This document shows positions 6,375 through 64,000 of a DNA stretch of 64,000 bases, piece after piece. The position numbers were made by a program, and so were the translations under genes. The stretch lies in the IMG/VR virus record IMGVR_UViG_3300025084_003379, positions 11,124-75,123 of that record; one strand, written 5' to 3'. Below the pieces are notes generated by a model. The model was given only the letters and a program-made list of their open reading frames with translations, did not search any database and was not told where the DNA came from. This stretch comes from a virus (Duplodnaviria; Caudoviricetes). Numbering within the stretch: the first letter of the stretch is position 1; every line of letters starts with the position of its first letter.

Positions 6375-6860
6375 ATGGAAAGTATAGAAGAAAAACTACA
6401 GTGGATTAAAGGTGATAAGATAGGGTCGGTAGAAGTTATTAAAACTACCGAGGATGGGTGGACTATATTTGAGAGTGGTGGAAGAATATCAACTAATCTA
6501 ATATCTGAATTTTTAGAACCTTTGGATGGAGATCCTTTAGATTTTAATTCACCTACACCAGCATCAATAAAAGCAGAGGTCTATAAAGAAAAATTGCCAC
6601 CACAAAAAGAAACCTCATCTCCAATAAGAACTCTTTTTGATAAGCAGAAAAAGAATGATAAAGTAAAACTGAATCTTACCTTTCCAATAAGTGTCCCTAA
6701 AAAGGCTATTTATGAAATTATTAGTTCATCATTTGATAGTGAAGAAGTAAACGAGGAACTAGAATCATTTATTAAAAATCAAATATCAGAAGATTTAATT
6801 TTGGATAGTCTTTTTGATAGTATTAAAGAATTAATTAAAACTAGATATAAAATTGACTAA
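6375..6860 (+). CDS. Hypothetical protein
   Basis: 161-aa ORF with A-rich leader. No motif recognised. Confidence 0.75.
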   Translation: MESIEEKLQWIKGDKIGSVEVIKTTEDGWTIFESGGRISTNLISEFLEPLDGDPLDFNSPTPASIKAEVYKEKLPPQKETSSPIRTLFDKQKKNDKVKLNLTFPISVPKKAIYEIISSSFDSEEVNEELESFIKNQISEDLILDSLFDSIKELIKTRYKID

Positions 6861-6896
6861 GCAATTTAAGGTATAATATATAATAAAATCAATCAC

Positions 6897-7271
6897 ATGA
6901 CACAAGCACCGAATAGAAGACAGAGAAGATTAGCGATGAAGTATCAAGGTATACTAAAGGCGAAAAGAAACTTACCTTTTAATGAATGGATGAAACTCAC
7001 AAAGGCATCTATTGATAAAGGTATAGAATTACATAAAGCTAACACTGATGCAGTAGAGAAGAAAATTACAGAACAGCTTGAGAGCATGGAAGAAAGTAAA
7101 ATTATAGCATGGAAAGAAGTTGGCTATAATGATAAAGAAATTGAAATGTTAAGAGAAGCTGATGCTATTTTAACTGTTAAAGATAAAGAATCATGGCATA
7201 CCGATAAAAAGGTAGCAAGAAAGCTAATGAAAGAAGCAAGAGAATCTTTAAATAATAGACTTAATGATTAA
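6897..7271 (+). CDS. Hypothetical basic helical protein
   Basis: 124-aa ORF with N-terminal NRRQRR, tightly packed with the next gene. Confidence 0.75.
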   Translation: MTQAPNRRQRRLAMKYQGILKAKRNLPFNEWMKLTKASIDKGIELHKANTDAVEKKITEQLESMEESKIIAWKEVGYNDKEIEMLREADAILTVKDKESWHTDKKVARKLMKEARESLNNRLND

Positions 7272-7593
7272 AATCGTTTTAGAACCTGCAAGGAATGGGG
7301 TTATTAAGAGAGTGATCGATGATAATCATGGCGGCGGTAAAGAACAGTGGACTTCAACAGATGTATATGAATCTAATGATGAAAGCCGTAATAAGTACGA
7401 ATATATTATGAAGTTCTTTTGGGAGCTATGCGAGGATCTAGGTTTAGAAGGCGGTAATAAATTTGAAAAAGAAGTACTCAGGTTAAAGACGGAATGGGGT
7501 ACTCATTATGAGCCTAATAAAAAAGAACTAGAAAGTAAAATAAGAGAGCTCCAAGCAGAGATCGATTTACTAACTGAATGGAAACAAACATAG
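7264..7593 (+). CDS. Hypothetical protein
   Basis: 109-aa ORF overlapping both neighbours, with a C-terminal coiled coil. Confidence 0.7.
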   Translation: MIKIVLEPARNGVIKRVIDDNHGGGKEQWTSTDVYESNDESRNKYEYIMKFFWELCEDLGLEGGNKFEKEVLRLKTEWGTHYEPNKKELESKIRELQAEIDLLTEWKQT

Positions 7594-10966: not shown

Positions 10967-12454
10967 ATGTCAACTGTAGAAAGAAACATATTAACTGTAA
11001 TAGAGCCGACGATAGAACTTGACGAGTTAGAAATAGTTGATCTTGAGAGCGGATCTGAAAACTCGGAAGGGCAAACGATGAAAGAAAAACCTTCTAAATT
11101 TTCATCTATTGTACCAACGATTGTAATTAATAGTTATACTGTACAAGGTGATCGTTTAAATACTTTTGAATTGAGGTCAGTTGGTTTTTATCCTACTTGT
11201 AGATTTACATTTACTGATAGAGATGGTTTATTTACCGCTAGATTTTTTCCTAAAGATGGTGATATCATTCAAGTGTATATAAGATCACAAGGTAATGAAG
11301 ATACATTTAAACCTATAAGAATTGATTTTACCGTTGAGGATATAAGACCTCTTGGTGGTGGTGGCGTTACAAACAAACCACCCGAACTTTTAGTTGAAGG
11401 AAGAATGCATGTTCCTAACCTATTTACAGAAAAAGTACAATTTCAAGATAATAATAGTTGGAATTCTTTACTGTCTATTGCAGAGGAATTAAAACTAGGG
11501 TATGCATCTAACGTAGAAGAAACAGCAGATCAACAGATTTGGACAAATCCATATGATACTTCACAAAGGTTTATACAAGACATAACTTCAAATGCTTATT
11601 TGAATGATGAATCTTTTTTTACTTCTTATATAGATCCTTACTACTATTTAACTTTTGTTGATGCTAATAAGTTTTTTGGACAAGAAGATGATATAGAAAC
11701 ATCTCAGCAATTTCAACAAAATGCAATAGACACAATAGGAAGTGGTGATGAAAATGAAAGTGATATGACATTTCCTAATATGTTAACAAATAATTTACAA
11801 ACACAAGGTAGTGCAAGATACATTGCAAATTATCAACAAGTTAACAAAAGTGGTAAAATTAGCAAAAATAACGGATATAAAAGATATACACAATATTGGG
11901 ATTTAAATGCAAAAGAATTTATAAGTGAATTTGTAGATCCTATAACAAATGATACACCAGGTATGATACCTGTAACTAAGGGTAGAACAATTAATGGTGA
12001 AGTAGAAGGCCCAAGGAATGAGCAGGTTAAATTTAAATTCTTAGGTACACAAGGTGATAATGTTCATGATAATTATTATTATGCATCTATACAAAATTTT
12101 CAAAATCTTGCAGAGATTAATAAGCTAGGAATGACCATAGAATTAGATACGGTTAATCCTGCTATTTTAAGATATAGTAGAATGTATTGTCTAATATATG
12201 AATACGGGCAAAATGTAAAAAGTGTATTAACTGCACCTAGTAATAATGAAGATGCACCAAATGATTCTGTCCGTAGGTCTGATATTGACGGTGATGACAA
12301 GAAAAGCCAAAATGGTATTATTAATGAATATCTTAGTGGGTTTTACGTTATTACTGGTTTAGAGTATTTTTTAATTAAAAATTCTCCAACCGGTGGTTCA
12401 GTATTAAAACAAAGAATACATTTACGTAGACGAGAGGTAACACCATCTACATAA
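10967..12454 (+). CDS. Putative baseplate hub protein (gp27-like)
   Basis: 495 aa, lies between the gp53-like and gp5-like genes. C-terminal LSGFYVITGLEY resembles hub proteins. Confidence 0.55.
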   Translation: MSTVERNILTVIEPTIELDELEIVDLESGSENSEGQTMKEKPSKFSSIVPTIVINSYTVQGDRLNTFELRSVGFYPTCRFTFTDRDGLFTARFFPKDGDIIQVYIRSQGNEDTFKPIRIDFTVEDIRPLGGGGVTNKPPELLVEGRMHVPNLFTEKVQFQDNNSWNSLLSIAEELKLGYASNVEETADQQIWTNPYDTSQRFIQDITSNAYLNDESFFTSYIDPYYYLTFVDANKFFGQEDDIETSQQFQQNAIDTIGSGDENESDMTFPNMLTNNLQTQGSARYIANYQQVNKSGKISKNNGYKRYTQYWDLNAKEFISEFVDPITNDTPGMIPVTKGRTINGEVEGPRNEQVKFKFLGTQGDNVHDNYYYASIQNFQNLAEINKLGMTIELDTVNPAILRYSRMYCLIYEYGQNVKSVLTAPSNNEDAPNDSVRRSDIDGDDKKSQNGIINEYLSGFYVITGLEYFLIKNSPTGGSVLKQRIHLRRREVTPST

Positions 12455-43063: not shown

Positions 43064-43420
43064 ATGAAAACATTTAAAGACTATCTTACAGAATCAACAG
43101 ATGATTCAGTTAATATACAAAATTTACTAAATGAATCTCACGATTTAACTGAGGAGCAAGAAACTGCTATAGATAACGCAGTAGACAGAATTATGGAAGA
43201 ACATAATAACGGAAAAGATTTAGAAGTTATTATGGAAGAAATAATTAATGAAGGTATATTAGGATCTGTTTTAGGTGGTCTTACTGGTTTTGCTTTAGGT
43301 AAAACAGTAGGAAAGGCCATTGCAAAGGTACTCGGTATTCAAAAAGGAGCCTTGTACGATTTATTAACTAGTCGATTAATTGGTGCTGCATTAGGCGCAG
43401 TATTAGGTAAACGCATTTAA
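43064..43420 (+). CDS. Putative internal head protein: capsid-targeting-like leader + acidic pro-region + glycine-zipper C-terminus
   Basis: MKTFKDYLTE is in register with the T4 IP leader MKTYQEFIAE. The last 55 aa are hydrophobic with GxxxG repeats. Confidence 0.6.
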   Translation: MKTFKDYLTESTDDSVNIQNLLNESHDLTEEQETAIDNAVDRIMEEHNNGKDLEVIMEEIINEGILGSVLGGLTGFALGKTVGKAIAKVLGIQKGALYDLLTSRLIGAALGAVLGKRI

Positions 43421-43430
43421 TTCAATATAA

Positions 43431-44099
43431 TTGATTTACTCAGGTATAGATTTTTCTCTTAATAGTCCAGGTGCATGTACACAGGACCATAAAGGCAAAT
43501 ACACATTTATTACATTCTTTAATTATGGTAATAGGGTGTGGGATGAAAAGGGTAGAAAAATACCTAAATCATTCTCGGTTCATAAAGAATTAATGGATAA
43601 TAAAACAATATTAGGATTCCCTTATTATAGACAAGTTAAAGATAAAGACTTTTTACTTAGGGAACGAGAAAAACTCACAGATGGCCAAAACATAGCCGAC
43701 TTAATTTCAAATATTTTAATAACATTATATGGCACAGAAGATCATAGAGTTGCTTTAGAAGGATTCTCTTATGGATCAAAAGGTAATTCTTTTATTGACA
43801 TAGTTCAATATAATACCTTTTTAAGAAACGAAATTGTAAACTCTTGGGGTGTAGAAAATATTTCAATTTATCAACCATCACATGTTAAAAAATTAGCAGG
43901 TAAAGGTAATGCAAATAAACATTACATGGTAAAGGCATTTCAAGACGATGTTTTTAATGATAGTGATTTAAGGAAAACTAAATTGTGGAAATGGACTCAA
44001 GGTAAAGACTTTACAGAAAAGATCCCTAAACCAATAGATGACCTTGTAGATGCGTACTTTATATTAAACGCGAATAAGAAAAAGGAAAGTGAACAGTAA
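43431..44099 (+). CDS. ruvC: RuvC-like Holliday junction resolvase
   Basis: GIDFSLNSPG, VALEGFSYGS, PSHVKKLAG-KGNANK and DDLVDAYFI catalytic motifs. TTG start. Confidence 0.8.
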   Translation: MIYSGIDFSLNSPGACTQDHKGKYTFITFFNYGNRVWDEKGRKIPKSFSVHKELMDNKTILGFPYYRQVKDKDFLLREREKLTDGQNIADLISNILITLYGTEDHRVALEGFSYGSKGNSFIDIVQYNTFLRNEIVNSWGVENISIYQPSHVKKLAGKGNANKHYMVKAFQDDVFNDSDLRKTKLWKWTQGKDFTEKIPKPIDDLVDAYFILNANKKKESEQ

Positions 44100-44212
44100 A
44101 ATACTTTATACCTTAAAACCACAATATACTTAAATGCTAGTAATTAGATACTTCTCTTTCTTTAATTAGGTATATTTTATATATAGAGTTTAGAATTTAG
44201 TTTCAGAAAATT

Positions 44213-44479
44213 ATGATAAAGGCAATAAAAAATAGAATATTTCTTAAAAAAGATGAACAACCAGAAAAAATTGGGAGCATCTATGTACCAAAATCTGAAG
44301 GCCAGTATGCACCACCATATTCAGGTGTTATATTATCTGTTGGTGAAGATATAGAAGATTCGGATTATAAAATAGGAATGACGGTATTATTTCATGACTT
44401 AGCAGGTACTGAATTTACTTACAACGGTGAAAAGATATTTAGTATTAGAGATTCCGATGTAACTGCTATTATAGAATAA
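44213..44479 (+). CDS. groES: GroES-like co-chaperonin
   Basis: IKAIKNRIFLK...IGSIYVP...GVILSVG...KIGMTVLF...AGTEF...DSDVTAII is the Cpn10 pattern. Confidence 0.88.
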   Translation: MIKAIKNRIFLKKDEQPEKIGSIYVPKSEGQYAPPYSGVILSVGEDIEDSDYKIGMTVLFHDLAGTEFTYNGEKIFSIRDSDVTAIIE

Positions 44480-44483
44480 TTTT

Positions 44484-44669
44484 TTTCTGTTTAGTGTGAA
44501 ACTAAATAGAGATATGAATATATAAATAACAAAGGAACTGATTATTCAGTGACTTATAAACAGGCATATAACAAGGCAAAGTATATTGGCAATTCCCGGG
44601 CAAGTTAAATAGGCAGCGCTGCGTTATATCCATTAATTAATAACAAAGTAAAATAAAAAGGCAATTAAA
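44484..44669 (+). promoter_or_regulatory. gp32 leader: hairpin 44486-44510, GAATATATAA 44516-44525, phased GGCA repeats, GCAGCGCTGC palindrome
   Basis: Read directly from the intergenic sequence; see findings. Confidence 0.5.
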
Positions 44670-45602
44670 ATGGCAAATGAATTCGACATTTTCAGTGTAA
44701 GCGTCAAGGACCTTGACACTGGAGACAGACCTGCACCAAGCAGCGATCTGTACACACCAAAACCCGATCAGGGACAAGACGGTACTTACCGTTCACTAAT
44801 TAGGTTTCTTCCTAATGTAAAAAATCCACGTAAACCTTTCGTTCGTAAATATGTCTATTGGTTAGAAGATAGAGATGGCAACGGATTTTACGCAGACTCA
44901 CCTTCAACTGTTGGAGATAAATGTCCGGTACAGGATATGTTCTTTAAACTTAGAAACTCAGAATCTGCTGTAGATAAAAAGATGTCAGAAGGGCTTAAGC
45001 GTAGAGAAGTATTTTATGCATTGGTTCAAATCGTAAAGGATCCACAGAACAGAGATCTTGAAGGCCAAATTAAAGTAATGAAATTTGGTTACAAGATTAA
45101 GGCTAAGATTGATGAGGAATTAAATCCTCAGTTTGATGAACCAACTCAAGTATTCGATCCGTTTGAAGGAAAGAATTTTGAATTAGTAATTTCAAAGAAA
45201 GGTGGTTATCCTAATTATGATTCTAGTAAATTCCAAGGTAGCCGAACTGCAATGGCAATCGGCGGAGAATCAGTAACAACTGATGATGCTGGTAGAACTG
45301 CAATTCTTGGTTACATTAAGGATGCACCTGAATTAGGCAACTTTGATTATCGTCCATGGACCGATGAGCAGAGAAATAAGGTAATGGGTGTACTATCTCA
45401 ATTTAGTAATCCTGGTTCCTCTATTGATACTGTAACTCGTAAACAGGCTGCACCGTCTCCTGCAAAATCTGAAAAGGCAGCGGCGTCAGTAACTGAAACG
45501 GCTGTTGCAGGATCTGCTTCCCCGGCGGCAACAGAAACAAAATCAGAAGATTCTTCTAAAGGAGATGATTTTGATGATTTCATTAATGGTTTAGATCTTT
45601 AA
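44670..45602 (+). CDS. gp32: T4 gp32-like single-stranded DNA-binding protein
   Basis: GTYRSLIRFLP, CPVQD, KFGYKIKAKI, FDPFEGKNF, NYDSSKF and an acidic tail DDFDDFINGLDL. Confidence 0.9.
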   Translation: MANEFDIFSVSVKDLDTGDRPAPSSDLYTPKPDQGQDGTYRSLIRFLPNVKNPRKPFVRKYVYWLEDRDGNGFYADSPSTVGDKCPVQDMFFKLRNSESAVDKKMSEGLKRREVFYALVQIVKDPQNRDLEGQIKVMKFGYKIKAKIDEELNPQFDEPTQVFDPFEGKNFELVISKKGGYPNYDSSKFQGSRTAMAIGGESVTTDDAGRTAILGYIKDAPELGNFDYRPWTDEQRNKVMGVLSQFSNPGSSIDTVTRKQAAPSPAKSEKAAASVTETAVAGSASPAATETKSEDSSKGDDFDDFINGLDL

Positions 45603-45606
45603 TGAT

Positions 45607-46680
45607 ATGGCAACAGAAGTATTAATATCTTCTGATATGAAAGCTCGGATCATCGATAAGGTGGTCCGAGTTCTTCATACTAACCATTCTCACCCTGAGA
45701 AAAGAAGAATATTAGAAAGTAAGGAAAGATTAAATTTTGCATGTCCTTATTGTGGAGACTCCACAGATTCGGTAAGAAAGAAGAGAGGTAATCTTTATTG
45801 GAATAATTTACAATATCATTGCTATAATTGTTCAGCACACGAAAGTTTAGACGTCTTCCTAAAAGACCACAATGAAAACTTCGAAGGTGAAGAAAGAATC
45901 AATGTAATTAATTTCATTAAAGAAAACCGTAAAAACTTTTCACTAGGTGAAACTTTAGAGTTTCATTTATTTGAAATGGCAAATAATTTATCATTAACAT
46001 TTGATGAGATTGCATTAGGTTTTAATGTCTATCCAATAAACTCATTAACATATAGAGCATATCCTTATTTAAAAAGTAGATTACTTCATCATAAAACCGA
46101 AAAGTTCGGTTATGATCCAAGACGAAAGGAACTGTATGTATTTAACCTTACACCTAAAGGAAAGATTGTTGGTTTTCAAGTAAGAGCGTTGGATGACAAT
46201 AGTGGTCCTAAATATAAAACGTGGAATATTGAAAGAATATATGATAGGCTTAAAAAACCTTTAAAAGTTTCAGAAGAAGAATTAGATTCTCTTAATAAAA
46301 TATCAATGATATTCGGTATACTTACTACAGATTTAAGTAGGCAGTTTACTGTATTTGAAGGTCCTATAGATTCATTCTTTATGTCTAATACAATTGGTCT
46401 TACTGGTGTTAAAAAACAAATACTAGATTTTGATGAAATTCCAACTGTTAGATATTTCTTTGATAATGATATTGAAGGAAAGACTAAAATGATACAAAAA
46501 CTAAAAAGAGGTAATACTGTTTTTATGTGGGATAAGTTTTTAAAGGATTTTAGAATACCTTCTAAAAAGGTAAAAGATTTAAATGATCTAGTTAAATATG
46601 AATATAAACATAGGACTGGGTGTTTAAACGAGTTGGATAAATATTTTACAAACAACCATTTAGATCTCATATTCATATGA
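45607..46680 (+). CDS. gp61: DNA primase (T4 gp61-like)
   Basis: Zn finger CPYCGDS...HCYNC; TOPRIM VFEGPIDS, FFDND, KDLND. Confidence 0.88.
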   Translation: MATEVLISSDMKARIIDKVVRVLHTNHSHPEKRRILESKERLNFACPYCGDSTDSVRKKRGNLYWNNLQYHCYNCSAHESLDVFLKDHNENFEGEERINVINFIKENRKNFSLGETLEFHLFEMANNLSLTFDEIALGFNVYPINSLTYRAYPYLKSRLLHHKTEKFGYDPRRKELYVFNLTPKGKIVGFQVRALDDNSGPKYKTWNIERIYDRLKKPLKVSEEELDSLNKISMIFGILTTDLSRQFTVFEGPIDSFFMSNTIGLTGVKKQILDFDEIPTVRYFFDNDIEGKTKMIQKLKRGNTVFMWDKFLKDFRIPSKKVKDLNDLVKYEYKHRTGCLNELDKYFTNNHLDLIFI

Positions 46681-46892
46681 TAAAAAATTATAGTAATTTT
46701 GTGACAGAACAGTTTGATGATTTTTATGATGATTTAGAAACTTCTAAGAAAAAACTTAAATTATTTACTAAGTTTAAAAAAATTGAAGCAGAAGAAGTAA
46801 AAACTAGTTTTTCTTTACCTCAGCCTAAAAAGAAGTTTCAACCAAAGATTAAAAATTATAAAAAGATTAATAATAATAAAGGAATATTTTAA
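46677..46892 (+). CDS. Small protein with capsid-targeting-like leader
   Basis: MIKNYSNFVTE leader, acidic then Lys-rich, overlapping both neighbours. Confidence 0.55.
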   Translation: MIKNYSNFVTEQFDDFYDDLETSKKKLKLFTKFKKIEAEEVKTSFSLPQPKKKFQPKIKNYKKINNNKGIF

Positions 46893-47341
46893 TGGCATTT
46901 GACGATACACAAATAAAAGAAGCTAATGAGCAGTTGGAAGGTAGATTAACATCAGATAGAAATGATTGGAAATCAAAGATTAAAGATCTTGTTTCTAAGC
47001 TTAAAAATATGAATGAGCTGGCCGAGTGCCAAGTAAGAATGTTATCATATCGACAAATACTATTAGATAAAGTAACTGATTTTAAAACTACCATATATAA
47101 AAGGAACGCTACTTGGGATAGGTATTATAAACAACAGTACCGAGAATATTCAATTAACTATGATGTTAAGTTAACTAACGGTGAAAAGAATCAATTTATA
47201 AAAGCAGATCTTTCATCTCTTAGGCAACAAATTGATATGTTACAATCTCATATAGATTATTATTATGAGTGTATTAAAACATTAGATAATATGGCGTTTG
47301 CTATAAGAAACAGAATTAATCTGGATGATAAGGAATTTTAA
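46892..47341 (+). CDS. uvsY: UvsY-like recombination mediator
   Basis: 149-aa all-helical protein immediately before uvsW, ending IKTLDNMAFAIRNRI as in UvsY-type proteins. Confidence 0.65.
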   Translation: MAFDDTQIKEANEQLEGRLTSDRNDWKSKIKDLVSKLKNMNELAECQVRMLSYRQILLDKVTDFKTTIYKRNATWDRYYKQQYREYSINYDVKLTNGEKNQFIKADLSSLRQQIDMLQSHIDYYYECIKTLDNMAFAIRNRINLDDKEF

Positions 47342-48843
47342 TGGAACTATCTCTGTCGGAAAATAAAAAGTTTTTAGTAATTGATTCATGCACCGAATTG
47401 GAATATGAGCAATTAAAATCTAGTCTTACTAAGAAAATAGAAGGTTGGAGATTTCACCCTCTAGTAAAGAAAAAGGTATGGGATGGTAATATTTCATTTA
47501 TCAAAAGAAATAAAATTCCGGCAGGGTTATGGAAAGAAGTAATTGATATATGTAAAGAATATGATTATCAATTTACATTAAACGGTATAACTGATATTTT
47601 TGATACTTCTATAGATGAAGAAATATTTAGATCTTGGGTAGATGAGTTTTTTGCTACATCTGAAATTAAGCCTAGAGATTATCAAATTGATGCAGCGATA
47701 AAGATTTTAAAGTATAGACGGTGTTTGGCTGAATTAGCAACATCTGCAGGTAAAACTTTAATTTCATTTATGGTGGTTGCTTATATGATGGAACAGTTAG
47801 GTAAAAAGAAAATCTTAATGATAGTACCTAATGTAAGTTTAGTTGTTCAAGCAAGCGGAGACTTTGAAGAATACAATAAAGGCAGGGTACCTATTAAGAT
47901 TCAACAAATTTATGCAGGCGTAAAATTACGAAAGAGTTCTAATGTTGTTATAGGTACTTACCAATCATTAACTAAAAAGGACGAGGAATACTTTAGCCAA
48001 TTTGATGCAGTCTTTGTAGATGAAACTCATAAAGCAAAAGCAAATTCAATTCAAAAGATAATGGATAAATGCTGGCATTGTGACTACAGATTTGGTTTGA
48101 GCGGTACTATTCCTAAAAGAGGAACTGTAAATAGACTAAGCTTAATGTCGGCAATGGGCCCATTAGTAACTCAAGTAAAAGCTGCTCACTTACAAGAAGA
48201 AGGTCATATTGCAAAATGTAAAGTATTGCAAATCCACATGGAATATGCAACCGATGCTCAAAAAGAAGCATTTTCATCATTATCTAAAAACCCATATGAT
48301 AGACAAAAGCTATTTAGTTTAGAACAGAACTTTATTAATGAAAGCGAAAAGAGGTTAGATTTCGTTTGTCAAGTAATTAAAAAGTCTACATCTAATTCAC
48401 TAGTGCTATTTCATAAAATAGCTTATGGTGAAAAGATATACCAAAAACTTCGAGCAATAACAGATAAGAAAGTTTATTATGTAGACGGTTCTGTTAAATC
48501 TGATTTTAGAGAAGAGTTCAAAAAAAGAATGGAAAAAAATGATGATGTTATTATTGTAGCTTCGTATGGTACATTCTCAACCGGTATATCTATTAAAAAT
48601 ATACACAACATATTTTTTACTGAATCATTTAAATCCGAAGTGATCATTAGACAATCAATCGGTAGAGGATTAAGAAAGCACTCATCTAAAGACGTTGTAA
48701 AAATATATGATTTTATTGATGATTTCCGTTATAAAGTAGATGATCATGACTGGGTAAATTACATATACAGACATGGTATGGAAAGAAGAAAAATTTACAA
48801 AGAGGAAAAGTTTCCATTTGAGGTGCAAAATGTTAGATACTAA
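47341..48843 (+). CDS. uvsW: UvsW-like SF2 DNA helicase
   Basis: PRDYQ, LATSAGKT, VFVDETH, GLSGT, SYGTFSTGISI and QSIGRGLR helicase motifs. Confidence 0.93.
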   Translation: MELSLSENKKFLVIDSCTELEYEQLKSSLTKKIEGWRFHPLVKKKVWDGNISFIKRNKIPAGLWKEVIDICKEYDYQFTLNGITDIFDTSIDEEIFRSWVDEFFATSEIKPRDYQIDAAIKILKYRRCLAELATSAGKTLISFMVVAYMMEQLGKKKILMIVPNVSLVVQASGDFEEYNKGRVPIKIQQIYAGVKLRKSSNVVIGTYQSLTKKDEEYFSQFDAVFVDETHKAKANSIQKIMDKCWHCDYRFGLSGTIPKRGTVNRLSLMSAMGPLVTQVKAAHLQEEGHIAKCKVLQIHMEYATDAQKEAFSSLSKNPYDRQKLFSLEQNFINESEKRLDFVCQVIKKSTSNSLVLFHKIAYGEKIYQKLRAITDKKVYYVDGSVKSDFREEFKKRMEKNDDVIIVASYGTFSTGISIKNIHNIFFTESFKSEVIIRQSIGRGLRKHSSKDVVKIYDFIDDFRYKVDDHDWVNYIYRHGMERRKIYKEEKFPFEVQNVRY

Positions 48844-48906
48844 TATAGAATATCTTTCTTATGAGAGATGGATATATAAAAAAAGAATCAAAAAAAGATA
48901 ATTATA

Positions 48907-50454
48907 ATGAAACCAATCAAAAAGTTTTCAATGATGACAAAGGCCGAAGGTTCAATTAATGAATCGGCAGATGTTAATCACGATGCAGTAATGGATCTTG
49001 TTAAAAAACTCGGTTACGAAAGCGTTGACGAATTAAAGAAAGAAAAAAATCTTCTAACTAAATTAGAAGGTTTATTAAAGGATTTTACTCCTAAACAAGA
49101 TATCTCTGAAGATGAGCTTGAAGAAGATAGAGCCGAAGATATAGCTGATGAAGTTAAAAAGAAAGGCGAACCTAAATCATTAGAAGGTGAAGAAGGTGAA
49201 AAGGAAGAAGATAAAGAAACTGGTGCATCTGGTGAAGTCGCTGAAACTGATGAAGTTGAAGAAGATACCGCGAAAGATATCGAAGATGAAGTATTAGCTA
49301 AAGGCGAACCTAAAGATATAGAAGATAAAGCAGGTGATAAGGTATCTGACGATCCTGAAATTACTGCTGATGTTCCTGCTGAAGCTGATGAAGTTAAAGA
49401 TGAAGATGGTGTTGATGTTGCTGCTGAAGAAGAAGAAACACCAGCTGCTACTAGAAGAATTATGGCCTTTGAAGATTTTATTAAAGAAAAAGAAGTTACC
49501 GTAAATAAGAATGTTAAATATCACGATGATGATGAAGAACCTGAAGACTATGCTGTTCCTATAGCAGCGTCTAAAGAGCCTCTTTCTGAAGATGAAGAAT
49601 CTAAAGGTATGGAAGATGAAAAAGAAGGTGATGAGCTAGAAGATAAAGGTGATAAGAAAGTTGATTCTGAGGATGACAAAGAAAAAGCTGATCATTATAA
49701 AGGAGCTGTTAAATCTGATGACTCTGAAATTGATGCATTAAAGAAAGATGTTGAATATGATGAAGATGAAGAAAAGAAAGATGAATCAAGAATCATGTCT
49801 TTTTCAAACTTTGTAACTGAAGCTTATGTAGAAGAGGAAGATGAAGAAGTAGAAGAAGCTGAAGATACTGAAGAAGATGAATCAGTAGAAGAAGGTGTTG
49901 GTGAAGTAATTACTAAAGTTGAAGGTGATGAAATTGCTGATGAAGTTGCTGGTGATGATGGTCTTGCTATTCCTGCAGAGAAAGGTGACGGTTCTGAAAC
50001 CGCTGCTGGTATTGCTGGAGATATAATGGATATGGGTAAGGTAAAAGAACAACCTGAATCAAAAGGTGAAGAATTAGTTACTAAAGATCAAAATATTACA
50101 ACTGAAGTAAAGGGTGAAGCTGATGATCTTAAGGATGCTACTGAAGTTCCTGCAGAAATGGGCGATGGTTCTGAATCTGCCGCAGGTATTGCTGGAGACA
50201 TAATGAATATGGGTAAGGTAAAAGTACAACCTGAATCAAAAGGCGAAGCATTAGTTGGAGAAGCTAAGATTAATGAAAAGGATATTACTTCTGCTGATGA
50301 ATTTAAAGAATATGCAATGGCAATTCTAAAAGATGCATTCGGAGATGACTTTGATGAAACTAAGGCAACTGAAACTGCTGAAGGATTACTTAAGAAGTAT
50401 GGTGAAGATTATGGAGCAATGGTTGGAGCTTTACAATCTACGATGGGATCATAA
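48907..50454 (+). CDS. Very acidic internal-head/scaffold-like polyprotein with repeated targeting-like motifs
   Basis: D/E-rich. Motifs KPIKKFSM, RIMAFEDFIKE, RIMSFSNFVTE, INES and INEK. Internal 36-aa duplication. Confidence 0.55.
   Translation: MKPIKKFSMMTKAEGSINESADVNHDAVMDLVKKLGYESVDELKKEKNLLTKLEGLLKDFTPKQDISEDELEEDRAEDIADEVKKKGEPKSLEGEEGEKEEDKETGASGEVAETDEVEEDTAKDIEDEVLAKGEPKDIEDKAGDKVSDDPEITADVPAEADEVKDEDGVDVAAEEEETPAATRRIMAFEDFIKEKEVTVNKNVKYHDDDEEPEDYAVPIAASKEPLSEDEESKGMEDEKEGDELEDKGDKKVDSEDDKEKADHYKGAVKSDDSEIDALKKDVEYDEDEEKKDESRIMSFSNFVTEAYVEEEDEEVEEAEDTEEDESVEEGVGEVITKVEGDEIADEVAGDDGLAIPAEKGDGSETAAGIAGDIMDMGKVKEQPESKGEELVTKDQNITTEVKGEADDLKDATEVPAEMGDGSESAAGIAGDIMNMGKVKVQPESKGEALVGEAKINEKDITSADEFKEYAMAILKDAFGDDFDETKATETAEGLLKKYGEDYGAMVGALQSTMGS
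49972..50256 (+). repeat. Imperfect 108-bp in-frame duplication (49972-50079 / 50149-50256)
   Basis: PAEKGDGSETAAGIAGDIMDMGKVKEQPESKGEELV vs PAEMGDGSESAAGIAGDIMNMGKVKVQPESKGEALV. Confidence 0.9.
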
Positions 50455-50472
50455 TAAATTAAAACTAAAGAT

Positions 50473-50811
50473 ATGAGTAATATAAAAAAGTTTGCAGATT
50501 TTGTAAATGAATCTTTAAATGAAAGGTTTACTTTCGCCGATGCAGTAGATACTGCTGGTGAAGATGTAAAGAAAAATGAAAAAGGTATTGCTACTGTTCT
50601 TAAAGCTCTTAAGGCCAGAAAAGCTGATGATATCATGATAATGACAGATACTACCGAAGATGAAGGTTCTGATTTATTTGATGTTATTGGAGGAATGAAA
50701 TCTCTTCCTATAGATTCTACTATTTATGATAAAGCATATCACGGCAAATATAAAGGTAAGAATGTAGTTGTATTTGACGATGGTGAAGATCTTTTTGCAT
50801 ATACAAAATAA
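50473..50811 (+). CDS. Putative internal head protein
   Basis: Leader MSNIKKFADFVNESLNE. Confidence 0.6.
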   Translation: MSNIKKFADFVNESLNERFTFADAVDTAGEDVKKNEKGIATVLKALKARKADDIMIMTDTTEDEGSDLFDVIGGMKSLPIDSTIYDKAYHGKYKGKNVVVFDDGEDLFAYTK

Positions 50812-50818
50812 TTAAAAC

Positions 50819-51205
50819 ATGAAACATATTAAATTATTTGAACAATTTCTATTAGAATCCGATTTAGATAAATTTTATAATAGTAAGATCAAGAATCCTA
50901 AAAGTGGTAGAGAAGTTACCGTAAAGACAATATTAGGAGATCCTGACAATCCTTTATATAAAAAGGTAAAGGCAAAGGAAGATCAACTAAAAGGTGGATC
51001 TGATGATAATTCCGAAGAAATTAAAAAGTTGGAGGATGAGATCAAGGAAATGGATGATCGCATAGAAATGATTAGAATGGATATAGCTGAGATTGAAGAT
51101 GAAGATCCTGATGATTATAGAATTCAAGAATTGGAAGAAGAAGAAGGTGGCTTGCTTGCTGATATTGAAATGGCTAAAGAGAAATTGGCTAAACTTAAAA
51201 AATAA
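50819..51205 (+). CDS. Putative internal head protein with acidic coiled coil
   Basis: Leader MKHIKLFEQFLLES, then KIKNPKSGREV and an acidic coil. Confidence 0.6.
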   Translation: MKHIKLFEQFLLESDLDKFYNSKIKNPKSGREVTVKTILGDPDNPLYKKVKAKEDQLKGGSDDNSEEIKKLEDEIKEMDDRIEMIRMDIAEIEDEDPDDYRIQELEEEEGGLLADIEMAKEKLAKLKK

Positions 51206-51207
51206 CC

Positions 51208-52479
51208 ATGAAACATATAAAATTATTCGAGGAATGGCTGACTGACAAAGGTCAGCCATTTCTTTTTGAAGGTGGCGCCGCTGGTCACATGGCTCATCCA
51301 TTTGATGATAAGGATTTAACCTTTGGTGATTTTAAGGCAATGATAGATGCTGGTCTTAGAGGTGAATTAAACTTTGAAGAAGAGGCTACCGAAAAGACTG
51401 ATGGTCAAAATGCATTTGCTACTATTCAAGATGGCGAAGTTAAATTTGCAAGAAACAAAACAGAGTTAAAGAATCCAATGACTCTTTCTGAATTTAAGAA
51501 TAAATTTGAAGGTCATCCTAGTAAATTAGTACAAGATACTTTTCAATTTGCTGCACAAGATTTGGCTAGATTATTAATGAACCTTTCTCCAGCTGACCAG
51601 GAAAAATATTTTAAGAATGGAAAAGACTTTATGAACATGGAGTTAATCTATTCACAAAACCCTAATGTTATTCATTATGATACAGATGTTATTCAATTTC
51701 ATGGTATAAAAGAAACGGATGGAAATGGTAATATTACAGGTACTAATAATAAACCTGCAAAAGAAATCGCAGATATACTTAAAAAGGTTGAATCTGATAT
51801 TGGTAAAACATTTAAAATAATTCCACCTAAGGCTATTAAATTACAAAAAGATTTAGATTTTACTGCAAATAAGAAAAGATTTATTAATCAAGTTAATGCT
51901 TTAGAAAAAAGATATGGTTTAACTGATAGTGATGAGGTTTCTAAATATCATGAAATGTGGTGGAGAGAATTAATTAATAAACAATTTCCTTCACTATCAC
52001 AAGATGTAAAAGAAGGTTTACTTAAGCGATGGGCATACGGAGATAAGAAGAGCTTAAACATGAGATCTCTCGCCAAACAAACTGGACCTAAAGAAGCTGC
52101 GTTAGTTAAAAAGTTTGATAAAGAAGATGTTGCTAAAAAATATAAAGAAAACATTAGACCTTTTGAAGATCTGTTCTTGGAACTAGGTTCAGTGATTTTA
52201 AAAAATGCGTCTGACTTTTTAGCTGCTAATCCATCTGATGAAGCCCAAAGATTAAGAACACAAATACAAACAGCAGGGAGTAAGATTAAAAAGACTGGTG
52301 GCGCTGACCAAGTAAGAAAGGTAGAGGCTGAGTTAGCAAGGCTCGATAGAATTGGTGGAATAGAATCTATATTTCCAACTGAAGGTATAGTATTTAAATA
52401 TAAAGGAAAAATTTACAAACTAACTGGAACCTTTGCTGCAATTAATCAACTATTAGGTATCATTAAGTTCGGTAGATAA
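51208..52479 (+). CDS. ATP-dependent ligase/nucleotidyltransferase-fold protein (KxDG) with targeting-like leader
   Basis: MKHIKLFEEW leader; EGGAAGHMAHPFD; EKTDGQN at 51391-51411; late EGIVF motif. Recalled as resembling the DUF6267-type proteins of T4-like phages (unverified). Confidence 0.6.
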   Translation: MKHIKLFEEWLTDKGQPFLFEGGAAGHMAHPFDDKDLTFGDFKAMIDAGLRGELNFEEEATEKTDGQNAFATIQDGEVKFARNKTELKNPMTLSEFKNKFEGHPSKLVQDTFQFAAQDLARLLMNLSPADQEKYFKNGKDFMNMELIYSQNPNVIHYDTDVIQFHGIKETDGNGNITGTNNKPAKEIADILKKVESDIGKTFKIIPPKAIKLQKDLDFTANKKRFINQVNALEKRYGLTDSDEVSKYHEMWWRELINKQFPSLSQDVKEGLLKRWAYGDKKSLNMRSLAKQTGPKEAALVKKFDKEDVAKKYKENIRPFEDLFLELGSVILKNASDFLAANPSDEAQRLRTQIQTAGSKIKKTGGADQVRKVEAELARLDRIGGIESIFPTEGIVFKYKGKIYKLTGTFAAINQLLGIIKFGR

Positions 52480-52566
52480 AATAGTATATAGGCCTATATA
52501 GATCACCTGTATTAAGAGTTAGCATTTGTGATATTTGTATATACTCTGAAGATAATAGAGTAAGAT

Positions 52567-52596
52567 AAGGGGTAGGTATTATGCTATCCTTTTTTT
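52567..52596 (+). terminator. Probable intrinsic terminator
   Basis: AAGGGGTAG-gtattatg-CTATCCTT stem (G.U pairs) followed by a T run. Confidence 0.55.
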
Positions 52597-52647
52597 ATAT
52601 AGCTATTAAACTAAAGAATATATAAATTGACAATATAAAATAAGCAA

Positions 52648-55458
52648 ATGAAAGAGTTAACTCAGATTTATAAAGATGCAGGGCAACAATTAATAGAAGA
52701 TCTTTTTAAGGATTATCTTGTAGTTTCAGAAAAACTATCAGGTTCTTCATTTTCATTTAAAAAAGGCGGTGAAGGAATTACTTTTTATAAAGGTGGAAAT
52801 CAAAAGCCTATTAACTTAATTGATAGGACTATAATGGTTTATTATGAAAAGCCTATTAATTTTATAAAATCTGTAACTAACAAAAATCTTTCTTCTATTC
52901 CTGAAAATTGGAAGTTCTGTTTTCAATATTTTGTAAATACTAATCCTGGTATTATTACTTATGATAAGCTACCTAAAAACAATTTAGTACTTACTCATAT
53001 TAAAGTAATGACACCAGCTGGCAAAGTTACAAAGGTTATAGAAGATCCTAGAGTAATTAGAGACTGGGCAAACGCATTAGGTGTTACTCCATTACTTCCA
53101 TTATTTAAAGGTTACTTAACAGAAGATCAAAAGAAAAAGATTAAAGAATTTTTAGAAACACCAAAAGAAGATCATGCTGAGATTTTTAGTACTAATTCAT
53201 TTGCTGAATATTTACTTAGAATTCTAAATCCTAATATTCAATCAACTACTTTACAAAATGATCTTAAGAAGCCTATAGAATCTATTGTATTTAAATTTTA
53301 TAAATCTGGTACTAAACAAGTTATTGCTGCTAAGTTAATAGATCCTTATACAATTAATTTAATGAAAGAAAAGGAGCCTATAGATATGAGGAAGACTCCT
53401 GCTGATATTAATGAAATTATTTTGTTGGATCTTTTAGCATTTATAGAAGAAAGAGGAATTAAGAAGCATGAGATTTTAGGGGATAGTGAAGATATGAGAT
53501 ACATAGAATTAGTTTCAAACATATTTAATGACTATGTAACCAAAAGAGGAAAAGATATTGCAAAGATTGATATTGAAAAAGCTGAGTTTGCTAAAGGTAA
53601 AGAATTTGATTTAAATGTAGAATTAATACCAAGCCAAAGAACTAAAGATATCCTTAATAGTAATCCTAAGCTAAAAGACTTATTTAAAATAATGTTAGGC
53701 TCTTTAAAAAAGAAAAGAAAGAATGCCGGTAATATTATGACACCATCAGTTATTGAAGATTTTAATAAAATGGTAAATAAAGTAACCGATGTAATTCAAA
53801 CAAAGGATGATGGCAAATTTAAAACTTTTGATGATTACTTAAAAATTAAATCAACTAATGAATCTCTTTTACCTAATGCTGAAGAATTATTAATTGAAGA
53901 TAAAGTATTGGATTATAATAATTTTATTAACCTAGCAAAGGTTGATGTTTTAAATGAAGCAAAGAAACAGCCTAACGTAAAAGAAAGACAGGCTAATTGG
54001 TTAAAGCATTATGAAAAAACTTTCCCACAAACAAGAAGAGATTCTGCAGGTCCTAAATATAGCCCAGAATATGTAAGAGCTAATTTTGGAGCAAATGATG
54101 GTACTGCCGAAGAAAACATTCAGAAATATTTAAAAGCTTTAAAAGTCCCTACATCCGCATATAAGATAGAGGGCTTTCCTAGCGGGCATTACCATAAAGA
54201 TGTTGCCAAAACCTTTTCTGGTCAATTTCATACTTATAAAATAACATTAAAGGCTAATAAACAAATATTAGGACAAGACTTTAAAAGAGGAGATACTATT
54301 TTTCTAACCAATCGTTATAAAGTAAGTGCAAAGACAGGCGAAGCAGCAGTAATAAAAGGAAAAGATTTAACTCCTGATGCAATGGATCTTGCAAGTACTA
54401 CCTATAAAACAGGAGTAGCGGTTGTTACTAAAGTAAATCAGTTTATAGATAACACATCTTACCCTGACAATTATAAACAATTCATTAAAGATTCTATGCA
54501 AGTAGTATTAAAAAATAAAGTTGGCACCTTTTCAGATTTTGAAGTCTATGCTTCTAGTGGAACTCCTATAGTATATAAAGTTGGTGCTTCTTTCTTTGAT
54601 GGAATAGATCAAGTTTCTGTAGCTAATTTTTCTAATGACTTTGGTGAAGTGTTAGGGGCATTAATGATGTTTAATATAATTAAAGATACGGGAGAAGGAT
54701 TAGCATATCCTAAGAATTCAAATGAAGCATTAGTTGATTTTGAATTTGATCAATATAAAGTTTCTTCTAAGGCAGGAGGCGGAGGTACACCGAGTGGATC
54801 TTCAATAATGAAAATGATTGATAATGCTAAAAGAAATGATGGCCTTATGTTAGATGTAGATCAAACAACATTTTATGAAGATGTAGTTAAGGTATGGCTA
54901 AACCCATATGAATTAAATAGAAATTCAACAACATATAATAAAGTGATGAATTTAGCTGCTGATGTACTAGGACCTAACCAAGGATCAGGCTATTCATATG
55001 TTTTACAGCAAGCTAACCTAAATCAAAAATCTGTAACAAGAGAAGCCTTAATTAAATTTTTAGATGAATTATTTAAAGAAGATCAAAATAAATTTAAATC
55101 ATTTATAAAAACACTATCAGAAAAAACTGGAGCATGGAGAGGTAAAATTGATTCGACCAAATATGCAAAAGAATATGAGGAGAGAATGGAAAAAAATGAT
55201 TCTAACAGAGTAGGGATGATTTTCTATCCTATTATGGTAGAAACTGCAAATGCATTAAATGAAAAATATTCTGATGTACTAACTCAGCTTACACAAAAAG
55301 TAACTGATGTTAAACAGGTATATTTAGATACTAAAGTTAAAGCAGGTGCTTTCATATTTAAAACTAAAAAGTTTAGTAGTGCTAACTTTAAGTTTCAACA
55401 AAAAGGTATGGTGTGGAATCCTTTTTCATCTATGATGGGAATCAAAATGGTAAAGTAA
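52648..55458 (+). CDS. Two-part polyprotein: ligase-like N-terminal half and PD-(D/E)xK-like nuclease-fold C-terminal half
   Basis: VSEKLSGS (KxDG variant) and ESIVFKF motifs; internal KTFDDYL..STNES and VLNEA; C-terminal NDFGEVLG...LVDFEFDQYKVSSKAG. Confidence 0.5.
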   Translation: MKELTQIYKDAGQQLIEDLFKDYLVVSEKLSGSSFSFKKGGEGITFYKGGNQKPINLIDRTIMVYYEKPINFIKSVTNKNLSSIPENWKFCFQYFVNTNPGIITYDKLPKNNLVLTHIKVMTPAGKVTKVIEDPRVIRDWANALGVTPLLPLFKGYLTEDQKKKIKEFLETPKEDHAEIFSTNSFAEYLLRILNPNIQSTTLQNDLKKPIESIVFKFYKSGTKQVIAAKLIDPYTINLMKEKEPIDMRKTPADINEIILLDLLAFIEERGIKKHEILGDSEDMRYIELVSNIFNDYVTKRGKDIAKIDIEKAEFAKGKEFDLNVELIPSQRTKDILNSNPKLKDLFKIMLGSLKKKRKNAGNIMTPSVIEDFNKMVNKVTDVIQTKDDGKFKTFDDYLKIKSTNESLLPNAEELLIEDKVLDYNNFINLAKVDVLNEAKKQPNVKERQANWLKHYEKTFPQTRRDSAGPKYSPEYVRANFGANDGTAEENIQKYLKALKVPTSAYKIEGFPSGHYHKDVAKTFSGQFHTYKITLKANKQILGQDFKRGDTIFLTNRYKVSAKTGEAAVIKGKDLTPDAMDLASTTYKTGVAVVTKVNQFIDNTSYPDNYKQFIKDSMQVVLKNKVGTFSDFEVYASSGTPIVYKVGASFFDGIDQVSVANFSNDFGEVLGALMMFNIIKDTGEGLAYPKNSNEALVDFEFDQYKVSSKAGGGGTPSGSSIMKMIDNAKRNDGLMLDVDQTTFYEDVVKVWLNPYELNRNSTTYNKVMNLAADVLGPNQGSGYSYVLQQANLNQKSVTREALIKFLDELFKEDQNKFKSFIKTLSEKTGAWRGKIDSTKYAKEYEERMEKNDSNRVGMIFYPIMVETANALNEKYSDVLTQLTQKVTDVKQVYLDTKVKAGAFIFKTKKFSSANFKFQQKGMVWNPFSSMMGIKMVK

Positions 55459-55469
55459 ATATATAAGGT

Positions 55470-56588
55470 ATGGATAACATAAATGATTTAAATGATTTCT
55501 TAAATGAAAGGAGAGTAACTGTTAAGAGAAGGTACACTGAGGCTCACCCAGCTAAAAATGTATCTACTGCTGCTAGAGTTCGTTCTGCTATTTTAGATGC
55601 TGTTGCTGATGGTCATTTAACTGAAGAGGAGGTTAATAATATCTTATCTGAAATAAAGGCTCACAAAAGATGGCTTAAAAGAAATGTAGGATTATTTAAT
55701 ATTAGTGAAGATGAAACTGGGATTAAGAGATATTCATTATCTCCTTATGGTCATAGAGTAAGAACTGCAACCGCTCCAATTAATGAAGCTTTAAAAGTTC
55801 CTCATAAAGAACAAGGTAAGAAAAAGGTTAATATGTTTGTTGGTAGATTCCAACCTTTTACATTAGGTCATGTTAAAGTATTTGAAAAAATGTATAAAGA
55901 AAATGGAAAGCCTGTAGTTGTATTTTTAGTTAGAGGAAAAAACAACGATCCTGAGAAAAGGCCGTTTGATGAAGAAATGCAACAAGCAATGTTTGCTAAG
56001 ATGGCAAAACAATATCCATTTTTAGAAACTGCTATTGTAGTTCCTAATGGTGCAATTGATACAATGTTTGCAGCAGCAAGACCTGCTTATGAACCTGTGA
56101 TGTGGGGATATGGGACGGATAGAAAAAAATCATACGGTGCAATGATTGACAAACAATCATACCGAGATCAATTAGGAGTAGATCCTGATTTTAAGGGTTT
56201 TGAGATTTTTAGAACTGATGATAACATTTCAGCATCTAAAGTTCGTAATGCGTTAAAGATAGATGATGAAAAGACTTTTAAGAAAATGACTCCTAAAAGT
56301 ATACATAGTTTTTATAAGCCATTACAAAATATATTAGAACCAATAAAAGAAATTAAAAATAACAACATGAAAAATTTAAAATCACTGAATAACTTTACTG
56401 TTGAAGAATCAAAGATCAATGAAGAGTATATTGAGCTTATGCCTGGAATGGAAGAAGGCTTAGAACAAATAGTAGAAGGTTGGATAGAATGGAAAAGTGG
56501 ACCTGCAACAGAAAAGAGTGATATTGCTCCAGCAAGAAAAGAATTATTAAACTTTTGTACAACTTATTTAAAAAAGAATATTAAATAA
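55470..56588 (+). CDS. Cytidylyltransferase-family (HxGH-type) nucleotidyltransferase flanked by extra modules
   Basis: FVGRFQPFTLGH (55836-55871) and ISASKVR (56226-56246). Leader NDFLNE; internal in-frame MKNLKSLNNFTVEES at 56367. Confidence 0.75.
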   Translation: MDNINDLNDFLNERRVTVKRRYTEAHPAKNVSTAARVRSAILDAVADGHLTEEEVNNILSEIKAHKRWLKRNVGLFNISEDETGIKRYSLSPYGHRVRTATAPINEALKVPHKEQGKKKVNMFVGRFQPFTLGHVKVFEKMYKENGKPVVVFLVRGKNNDPEKRPFDEEMQQAMFAKMAKQYPFLETAIVVPNGAIDTMFAAARPAYEPVMWGYGTDRKKSYGAMIDKQSYRDQLGVDPDFKGFEIFRTDDNISASKVRNALKIDDEKTFKKMTPKSIHSFYKPLQNILEPIKEIKNNNMKNLKSLNNFTVEESKINEEYIELMPGMEEGLEQIVEGWIEWKSGPATEKSDIAPARKELLNFCTTYLKKNIK

Positions 56589-56815
56589 TGTCTAAAGACG
56601 TAAATGAAAATGAAGCAGGAACCGTTGGCTTAAATCCTAACATGGATGTACAGGGTATGGGGGCTGTTGAGCTTCCAGGTGATCCTGGATCGGCAAATTC
56701 TTTTGCTACACAAAAGGTTGGTAGTGGAGATGATCCTGAAGGAAAAAAGAAGAAAAAGAAGAAAGTATTACTTTTATCGTTTGATAAGTTTATGGATCTT
56801 CTTCAAGTAAAATAA
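56588..56815 (+). CDS. Small hypothetical protein
   Basis: 75 aa with a TAATG overlap. Contains VNENE, a Lys run and C-terminal LLSFDKFM. Confidence 0.6.
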   Translation: MSKDVNENEAGTVGLNPNMDVQGMGAVELPGDPGSANSFATQKVGSGDDPEGKKKKKKKVLLLSFDKFMDLLQVK

Positions 56816-63074: not shown

Positions 63075-64000
63075 ATGGGATTTAGCAATCAAGACGTAAG
63101 AAAATTAGTATTTAAAGTACAGGCTGGTAATGTTATCGATGCAGATACAAATTTTTACTGGTATCAATCCAATTTGGAAAATACACCTACTGTTAAAACC
63201 GGTAGGCTTATTGACCAAACTGATTGGAATGTAATACTTGCTAATCAACCGTCTACATCAGATCAAGGTCAAGCTGGATCTTTATTAGTGTTAACTAATC
63301 CTGGTAACCCTCTTGATGGTTATGTAGGAAATGAATGGGGTACTAGTACTGGCTTTTCACCAAATGACTCACCTATAACAAATAGAACTGCTACGAGAAT
63401 GACTTTGGTAGTAGGTTCTAACCCTAATACTTATTATGCATTAAATACATATAATACACCATCCTCTGGTAGAAAAGATATGTGGATTGGTCCAGCAAGT
63501 ATACCAACCCCAAGCGGTGCAAAAAATGATAAATATGAAATTGAGTTATGGAGTGGTGATCCTACTACAGCATCGGCGGTAAAGGTTGATAAATCAATTT
63601 CCGAAGGTACTCCCGGTAATGTTGCCGGTTGGGTATTTAATTATGATCAAGGATTATTATTAGTATCTGATGATTTAATTAATGCTGTTGGTAGTACTGG
63701 GGGTAATGCTACATATCCTGATGGTACAGATTTTTATATTAGAGGATGGCGATATATTGGTGCAACTGGCGGTGGTGGTGGTGCTCAAGGTATTCAAGGA
63801 GCCCAAGGTATAACTGGTGCTCAAGGTATTCAAGGTATAACTGGTTTACAAGGTACACAAGGTATTCAAGGTATTCAAGGTATAGAAGGGTCTGGTGCAC
63901 AAGGTATTCAAGGTATCACTGGTTTACAAGGAACTCAAGGTTTACAAGGTACTGAAGGTACAGGAACACAAGGTATTCAAGGTATCACTGGTTTACAAGG
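63075..64000 (+). CDS. Third collagen-like fibre, 3' truncated by window edge (absent from ORF track)
   Basis: Hand translation from ATG 63075 ([23 protein letters not shown]...[11 protein letters not shown]...YIRGWRYIG) stays open to the window end. GXQ tract from ~63781. Confidence 0.88.

Follow-up and report, generated by a model that had tools for sequence, protein, structure and literature searches.

A leader peptide resembling the T4 capsid targeting sequence

The 64-kb window analyzed here (positions 11,124 to 75,123 of IMG/VR record IMGVR_UViG_3300025084_003379) belongs to a 75-kb contig, and its stretch 43064-56815 holds a series of genes that begin with a short recurring peptide, M-K-x-[IF]-K-x-[FY]-x-x-[FYW]-[LIV]-x-E. 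On balance, we favor the reading that this leader is a capsid-targeting and protease-site tag of the type found in phage T4, and that it mimics the repeat unit of the phage scaffold. It is probable that the tagged proteins, which include two enzymes, are packaged in the virion. Scaffold binding, cleavage, presence in the virion, and ejection are all inferred here from sequence comparison. The contig is a fragment of a jumbo T4-related phage, whose genome is placed at roughly 300 kb because CheckV gives the 75-kb contig a completeness of 25%.

The concept of a capsid targeting sequence (CTS) and the occurrence of CTS-like leaders in phages related to the T-even group are already known, and the T4 sequence was reportedly described by Mullaney and Black in 1996. 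The T4 record has MKTYQEFIAE at the starts of ipII and ipIII, as the sequence-only reading of this stretch had stated; ipI starts with MKTFKEF and is cleaved after ITE, and the gp23 cut site is FLTE. In T4, the CTS is carried by the internal proteins IPI, IPII, and IPIII and by Alt, and is removed by the prohead protease gp21 (PMC9026906, PMC3012670). For packaging, the N-terminal 10 residues of IPIII are enough; cleavage depends on residues 8 and 10, and an Asp at position 10 allows targeting but blocks the cut (PMC9026906). Within the literature that was searched, no paper was found on CTS-like leaders in marine jumbo phages or on a link between such leaders and scaffold repeats.

The motif was counted in a strict form, [FY]xx[FYW][LIVM]x[ED] starting within the first 12 residues of an open reading frame (ORF). 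Six of the 68 ORFs of the 75-kb contig carry it, against 0.24 expected, and five of these six lie in the flagged stretch, which bears out the concentration that the sequence-only reading had proposed; the coordinates it listed all translate as it had written them. Shuffling whole proteins and shuffling the N-terminal 19 residues, the latter preserving the Lys/Ile/Phe-rich make-up of N-termini, gave the same control values (mean 0.24, maximum 3). In addition to the five strict leaders, the stretch holds a looser one and a longer, IPI-like one, in the genes starting at 55470 and 48907, respectively (genes are named here by their first position in the window). The leaders at these seven ORF starts measure 10, 11, 13, 13, 13, 13, and 19 residues and end in LTE, VTE, INE, VNE, LLE, or LNE, with the exception of 51208, which ends in LTD and has FLFE eight residues on. 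None of the tail, baseplate, fiber, and replication ORFs of the window has the strict motif at its N-terminus, in agreement with the earlier statement that structural and replication genes lack it. The sixth strict leader, MIPKFNNYLNE, is found upstream of the window next to an imperfect leader without the Glu, MKKVPLFEDFIP; both are on the minus strand, at G000 6719-7467.

The same enrichment is found in LR756500.1, the closest complete record, an uncultured phage of 462 kb that shares the gene order and has a single-stranded DNA-binding protein (SSB) of 55% identity. Strict motifs start 27 of its 679 ORFs, against 2.9 expected (shuffle maximum, 9), and in 24 of the 27 the first aromatic is residue 7. 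When the strict expression was run on the 61 ORFs of a 50-kb segment of T4, the N-terminal matches were ipII and ipIII only.

The leader is attached to proteins that are otherwise dissimilar. With the first 16 residues removed, BLAST grouped the 45 loose-motif carriers of both genomes into 35 clusters; the leader-like carriers comprise more than 15 unrelated singletons plus one paralogue family of 10. The leader is nearly invariant in orthologues, and conservation collapses directly past the Glu; in 45 distinct orthologues of 43064, the entropy is 0.23 bits at residues 1-10 versus 1.17 bits at residues 11-30. Among relatives with 85-98% identical helicases, leader genes were gained, lost, or replaced while the leader was retained, a turnover like that reported for T-even phages at their polymorphic loci for internal proteins (PMC3012670, PMC9026906). 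The leaders of the window differ in their synonymous codons, and therefore selection acts on the peptide. A DNA-level repeat was considered as the origin of the leaders and rejected, because silent positions differ between them.

A shared start that has no signaling role, be it a duplication relic, a recombination junction, or a codon or translation-start preference of AT-rich DNA, would fit some of the observations. AT-rich genomes favor Lys, Ile, Phe, and Tyr near starts, and modules are swapped at the motif, as seen in the C-half of 52648, which differs in LR756500.1, and in the inserts past the internal junction of 55470. We regard this explanation as highly improbable, given that shuffled N-termini fall so far short of the six leaders observed, that leaders differing at silent sites are joined to unrelated mature parts, and that strong purifying selection on the peptide has its boundary at the Glu.

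Head genes and scaffold repeats in related contigs

The earlier interpretation is partly supported. Comparative evidence favors a portable N-terminal tag of the T4 CTS type, and related contigs have a corresponding gp21-type protease, a scaffold repeat that the tag copies, and capsid propeptide sites that it matches. In LR756500.1, a gene with an S77 (gp21-type) protease domain adjoins the gp23-type capsid gene. With the LR756500.1 capsid protein as query, 80 loci were fetched, and five capsid-bearing contigs were searched for S77. The domain, fused to about 400 further residues, was found above the Pfam cut-off in all five of these clade-assigned contigs and in LR756500.1. The capsid-bearing contigs are treated as the same clade because of their fiber-gene ends, shared samples, G+C, and the gene order of LR756500.1: four of the five start inside a collagen-like fiber gene homologous to window 59156, the fifth having an internal match, and the 75-kb contig itself ends inside a collagen-like fiber gene; some share their samples with sister contigs that carry the helicase, and G+C is alike; and LR756500.1 joins a gene order matching that of the 75-kb contig with the same portal-protease-capsid head module as the capsid-bearing contigs.

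The head genes run in the order portal, protease of about 600 aa (phrog_207), capsid, and a Lys/Ala-rich leader protein of 324-392 aa. This capsid-adjacent protein starts with MKRVKSYNEFIAE, the core of which is one residue off the T4 Y-Q-E-F-I-A-E. The capsid propeptide has invariant LINE, IIEE, and LNE sites, with LNE upstream of the position at which T4 gp23 is cut. Behind its S77 domain, the fusion protein of about 600 aa has nine in-phase repeats of 14 residues; across 47 distinct proteins there are 9-12 repeats per protein, with the consensus K-S-I-x-Y-S-E-Y-[LV]-A-E-N-[LV]-D. The core of this scaffold repeat, Y-x-[EDN]-[YH]-[LVI]-A-E, equals the leader pattern, and the strict motif matches eight times in one scaffold protein versus 0.14 times in shuffles. 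A position-specific scoring matrix built from the repeats only was scanned over 177,673 positions in three proteome sets, and N-termini made up seven of the 20 best matches and 14 of the best 60, versus a background of 3.8%. An example of the protease-scaffold gene is L143:6079-7881 (sister contig G007), and others are L110-L189. A complex prediction for the scaffold repeats and residues 1-45 of the leader protein encoded next to the capsid, made without controls, scored 0.00 and counts neither for nor against an interaction.

The surroundings of the tagged genes would also fit another function for the peptide, as a docking helix for a different hub (e.g., a replisome or clamp partner) that recruits repair enzymes and is unrelated to the head. 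The genes have gp32-, primase-, UvsY-, and UvsW-like genes on one side and the fibers on the other, and the acidic tail of the gp32-like SSB (window 44670-45602), F-D-D-F-I-N-G-L-D-L, is superficially like the leader core; in addition, some ligases carry N-terminal clamp-binding boxes. Such docking appears quite unlikely, as it leaves unexplained why the leader keeps a fixed register at the N-terminus and ends in Glu, why conservation stops so sharply, the match to scaffold repeat and capsid propeptide, the leader on the capsid-adjacent gene, and the capsid N-arm copy in 56588 that is described below. The polymerase and gp55-like C-termini in G007 end ..IYT.., unlike the leader. These ..IYT.. 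tails are themselves a possible clamp-binding tail.

The tagged genes and their enzymes

The sequence-only reading had counted nine genes with the motif. Seven of them are solid, 56588 has a related but different copy at its C-terminus, and 52648 is weak. All nine are on the plus strand. The first, 43064-43420 (118 aa), starts with the 10-residue leader MKTFKDYLTE (43064-43093), which is identical to that of T4 ipIII at five of 10 residues and has the first five residues of T4 ipI. Two more conserved islands of the form h-N-E, h being a hydrophobic residue, follow at 43124-43135 and 43241-43252, and then a conserved Gly-zipper C-terminal peptide. The gene 46677-46892 (71 aa) has the 11-residue leader MIKNYSNFVTE (46677-46709), which is retained in dozens of orthologues with varied flanks. 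The neighboring genes 50473-50811 (112 aa) and 50819-51205 (128 aa) start with the 13-residue leaders MSNIKKFADFVNE (50473-50511) and MKHIKLFEQFLLE (50819-50857), respectively, and both are missing in some close relatives.

The gene 51208-52479 encodes a 423-aa RNA-ligase-like nucleotidyltransferase (K-x-D-G) behind the 13-residue leader MKHIKLFEEWLTD (51208-51246), which ends in Asp; the second h-x-E site, FLFE, is at 51259-51270, where the domain starts. Among 1857 homologues of this family, the conserved domain begins at query residue 17-18, and E-K-x-D-G is invariant in the 17 that were aligned. Most homologues are C-terminal domains of long HxGH-nucleotidyltransferase fusions; stand-alone homologues occur with or without the leader, which is missing in many homologues. 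The AlphaFold2 model has a predicted local distance difference test score (pLDDT) of 85.7, and residues 1-26, with no more than a short helix (7-13), score below 50. Because this segment is of low confidence in an otherwise confident model, the leader is regarded as an appendage outside the 51208 fold. The best Foldseek matches are the ligases Trl1 and T4 Rnl1, and they are weak (E about 2e-3, template modeling (TM) score about 0.2). The protein had no sequence match in Pfam, PHROG, or the Protein Data Bank (PDB), and the PDB sequence search returned nothing useful for 52648 either. As a separate observation, the 51208-type domain (window 51208-52479; homologues P0064-P0213) is usually C-terminal in HxGH fusions of 500-2000 aa, and many of the long fusions have a related N-terminal helix, M-N-x-L-[ST]-x-[FWY]-L-V-E-x-I-L-x-E, with I-N-E-S just before the domain.

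The second enzyme, encoded by 55470-56588 (372 aa), matches Pfam PF01467 and is a cytidylyltransferase-like HxGH enzyme. Its loose 13-residue leader ends ..LNDFLNE (55470-55508), and the N-terminal pattern ..F-[ILV]-x-E followed by K is found in all orthologues.

Internal and C-terminal copies of the motif

The gene 48907-50454 encodes a very acidic, repetitive protein of 515 aa whose IPI-like leader of 19 residues ends in INE (48907-48963). The two internal leader copies noted earlier in this gene are present, at 49456-49488 and 49789-49821, and about 45 orthologues, 409-665 aa in length, conserve both of them. The Met in front of each internal copy is not conserved. Internal translation starts at these copies were considered and rejected, because some orthologues have Lys or Arg in place of this Met. 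Within 55470, a leader-like junction (56367-56408) ends in Glu followed by Ser, after which orthologues have inserts of variable length. The gene 52648-55458 encodes a two-part protein of 936 aa, a ligase-like N-half and a variable C-half, with a weak leader-like junction between them (53815-53865); F-K-T-F-x-D-Y-[LI] is kept in orthologues without a conserved Glu, and in the LR756500.1 orthologue the C-half past the junction is an HxGH nucleotidyltransferase instead. Of the earlier idea that internal copies let one ORF release several modules, processing is plausible for 48907 and 55470 and doubtful at the 52648 junction, where the conserved Glu is missing. The internal copies could equally be fusion scars.

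The internal copies of 48907 could also be multiple cut sites of a degraded core protein, by analogy with T4 gp22, gp67, and gp68. On this explanation, some carriers, with 48907 as the main candidate, would still be targeted to the prohead core by the tag, as assembly parts that are chopped and expelled and not as cargo for the host. The three T4 proteins are acidic, have several h-x-E sites, and are cut to small peptides, and the N-terminus of gp22 resembles a CTS. It is reported that gp22, gp67, and gp68 are cut into short fragments (PMC5694885). The 48907 protein is likewise extremely acidic and repetitive, with length-variable filler between its three conserved motif copies; T4 gp67 has a comparable acidic tract, and the scaffold itself consists of the same motif. 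In contrast, 48907 has no sequence similarity to the T4 proteins, is much longer, and lies outside and far from the head module. The mature parts of the other carriers are folded (ligase-like, HxGH, Gly-zipper) and lack further internal sites. We assign this alternative a small but appreciable chance.

The last gene of the stretch, 56588-56815 (75 aa), consists of a copy of the capsid N-arm, a run of Lys, and, at the C-terminus, an aromatic helix akin to the leader. Residues 5-50 share homology with the major capsid protein of the clade over its predicted cut site and N-arm, and this resemblance ties 56588 to head assembly at the sequence level. The poly-Lys run and the helix are conserved; the helix lacks the h-x-E end, and in the LR756500.1 orthologue a complete leader-like motif stands at this terminus. 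Orthologues of 121-138 aa have an extra N-terminal DUF3008 (PF11450), and the window copy is the short form. A homologue search with this 75-aa ORF at the "longer" setting did not extend to capsid proteins. Members of the family are common in marine data, and the phage group is called marine because some orthologues of this gene come from Tara Oceans data.

Proposed mechanism and comparison with known systems

In the mechanism that we propose for the T4-type tag, the leader would fold as a short amphipathic helix and mimic a single unit of the 14-residue scaffold repeat, and the tagged proteins would co-assemble with the scaffolding core inside the prohead. The S77 protease would then cut after the Glu of h-x-E, a rule that also fits the scaffold repeats and the capsid propeptide. 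The cut would free the mature cargo, which would remain in the head with the DNA and probably enter the host at infection. A stronger form of this proposal is possible but tentative: the leader may co-polymerize any protein with the scaffold and the same cut may release it, giving a rapidly changing plug-in arsenal that would include a pre-packaged RNA-repair pair.

The resemblance to the T4 CTS includes the N-terminal tag of 10-19 residues with an M-K start, spaced aromatics, and an [LIV]-x-E end, its presence on unrelated proteins, and the variation of putative cargo loci between close relatives; clade-assigned contigs and LR756500.1 add an S77 protease and a gp23-type capsid. In length and layout, the 43064 leader is like that of ipIII and the 48907 leader like that of ipI, the IPI leader having 19 residues ending in ITE and the 48907 leader 19 residues ending in INE. 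Unlike T4, this phage, a distant marine jumbo phage with a genome of about 300 kb, is uncultured and known from sequence, its leaders are mostly of 13 residues, and a ligase-like enzyme and an HxGH nucleotidyltransferase are among the putative cargo, versus the small basic proteins of T4. It also has conserved internal and C-terminal copies and, judging from the clade-assigned contigs, a scaffold that is fused to the protease and built of repeats of the leader core motif, and its leaders take Val in addition to the residues of the T4 gp21 rule, [LI]-x-E, a wider range than in T4.

Other systems share parts of this design. The giant phages phiKZ, 201phi2-1, and SPN3US package many proteins, enzymes included, and have a protease related to gp21 with cleavage after Glu; propeptides have been reported on their ejection proteins (PMC5694885, PMC10052503). 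These propeptides differ from the leader in being mostly longer than 100 residues with the cut motif [AS]-x-E, and a short shared leader is not described for these phages. As an analogy only, encapsulin cargo-loading peptides are short, portable, and dock varied enzymes inside an HK97-fold shell; unlike the leader, they are C-terminal, shell-binding, and uncleaved, and have no sequence likeness to it.

Several points weigh against the T4-type tag. The evidence on the tag in this phage consists of sequence, and the 75-kb contig contains no head genes, so that the S77 protease is linked to this genome through clade-assigned contigs and a relative of about 55% identity, which is not proof. The tagged genes adjoin replication genes rather than the head module, and the proteins of 51208 and 55470 are enzymes that could act in the cytoplasm. 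The match between repeat and leader concerns the core only, as the repeats favor Tyr/Tyr/Ala where the leader has Phe and a variable residue, and the residue after the leader Glu varies. Finally, the 51208 leader ends in Asp before FLFE, and Asp at this place in T4 permits targeting but prevents cutting (PMC9026906).

If the tag acts as proposed, the head cargo would include enzymes besides small inhibitors. The head contents of an uncultured jumbo phage would then be readable from sequence alone, and in abundant marine phages the tag would point to a fast-evolving set of candidates for first-strike proteins. In the tentative stronger form of the proposal, the ligase-like and HxGH nucleotidyltransferase proteins would be an RNA-repair pair delivered with the DNA, which could for instance undo tRNA- or RNA-cleaving defenses of the host ahead of phage gene expression. 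The resemblance of tag and repeat would also provide a testable answer to how a CTS is recognized, a question that is open even for T4. The leader may further be used as a portable tag to load foreign proteins into large capsids.

Genome context and minor observations

All long ORFs of the 64-kb window are on the plus strand, and the G+C content is about 32%. PHROG scans of the window identified gp5-, gp25-, and gp6-like baseplate genes, a tail tube, and collagen-like fibers, together with RuvC-like, GroES-like, gp32-like SSB, primase, UvsY-like, and UvsW-like helicase genes, which make up a T4-style replication and recombination set. For 46677, 48907, 50473, 50819, 51208, 52648, and 56588, PHROGs and Pfam gave nothing significant, and a megablast of 47341-52479 against phage records gave no match. 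The helicase is 85-100% identical in 80 IMG/VR contigs. Sister contigs of 62-84 kb have completeness values of 23-32%, so that a genome near 300 kb, with several collagen-repeat fiber genes, is probable. The contigs of this clade break inside collagen-like fiber genes (window 63075-63998; ends of G005-G008), in G007 at both ends.

Promoter-like motifs were observed. The pattern [GTA]AATATATA[AC] lies 13-32 nt upstream of 43064, 52648, 55470, several baseplate genes, and also gp32. Two motifs keep a fixed distance from start codons: GAATAAATA(A/T)AAA lies 26-27 nt before large structural genes (window 1352, 12456, 31120, and 59129), and [GT]AATATATAA 25-32 nt before baseplate genes, 43064, and 52648 (window 16326, 18541, 43039, and 52616). 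These motifs are suggestive of co-expression with virion genes and too ambiguous to use.

Upstream of the window, two small ORFs (G000 2052-2480 and 5755-6288) have signal-peptide-like starts ending ..A-Q. We take such endings to be the style of secreted proteins of Bacteroidota, which presumably hints at the host phylum.

The LR756500.1 genome also encodes about 10 paralogues of 540-650 aa with a common internal GGASRLFK-[YH]-F-I-K-E-Y (L004-L027; e.g., 182153, 184734, 223125, and 249717). They are dispersed over the genome, one of them between the capsid gene and the tail genes, and may be mobile endonuclease-like genes.

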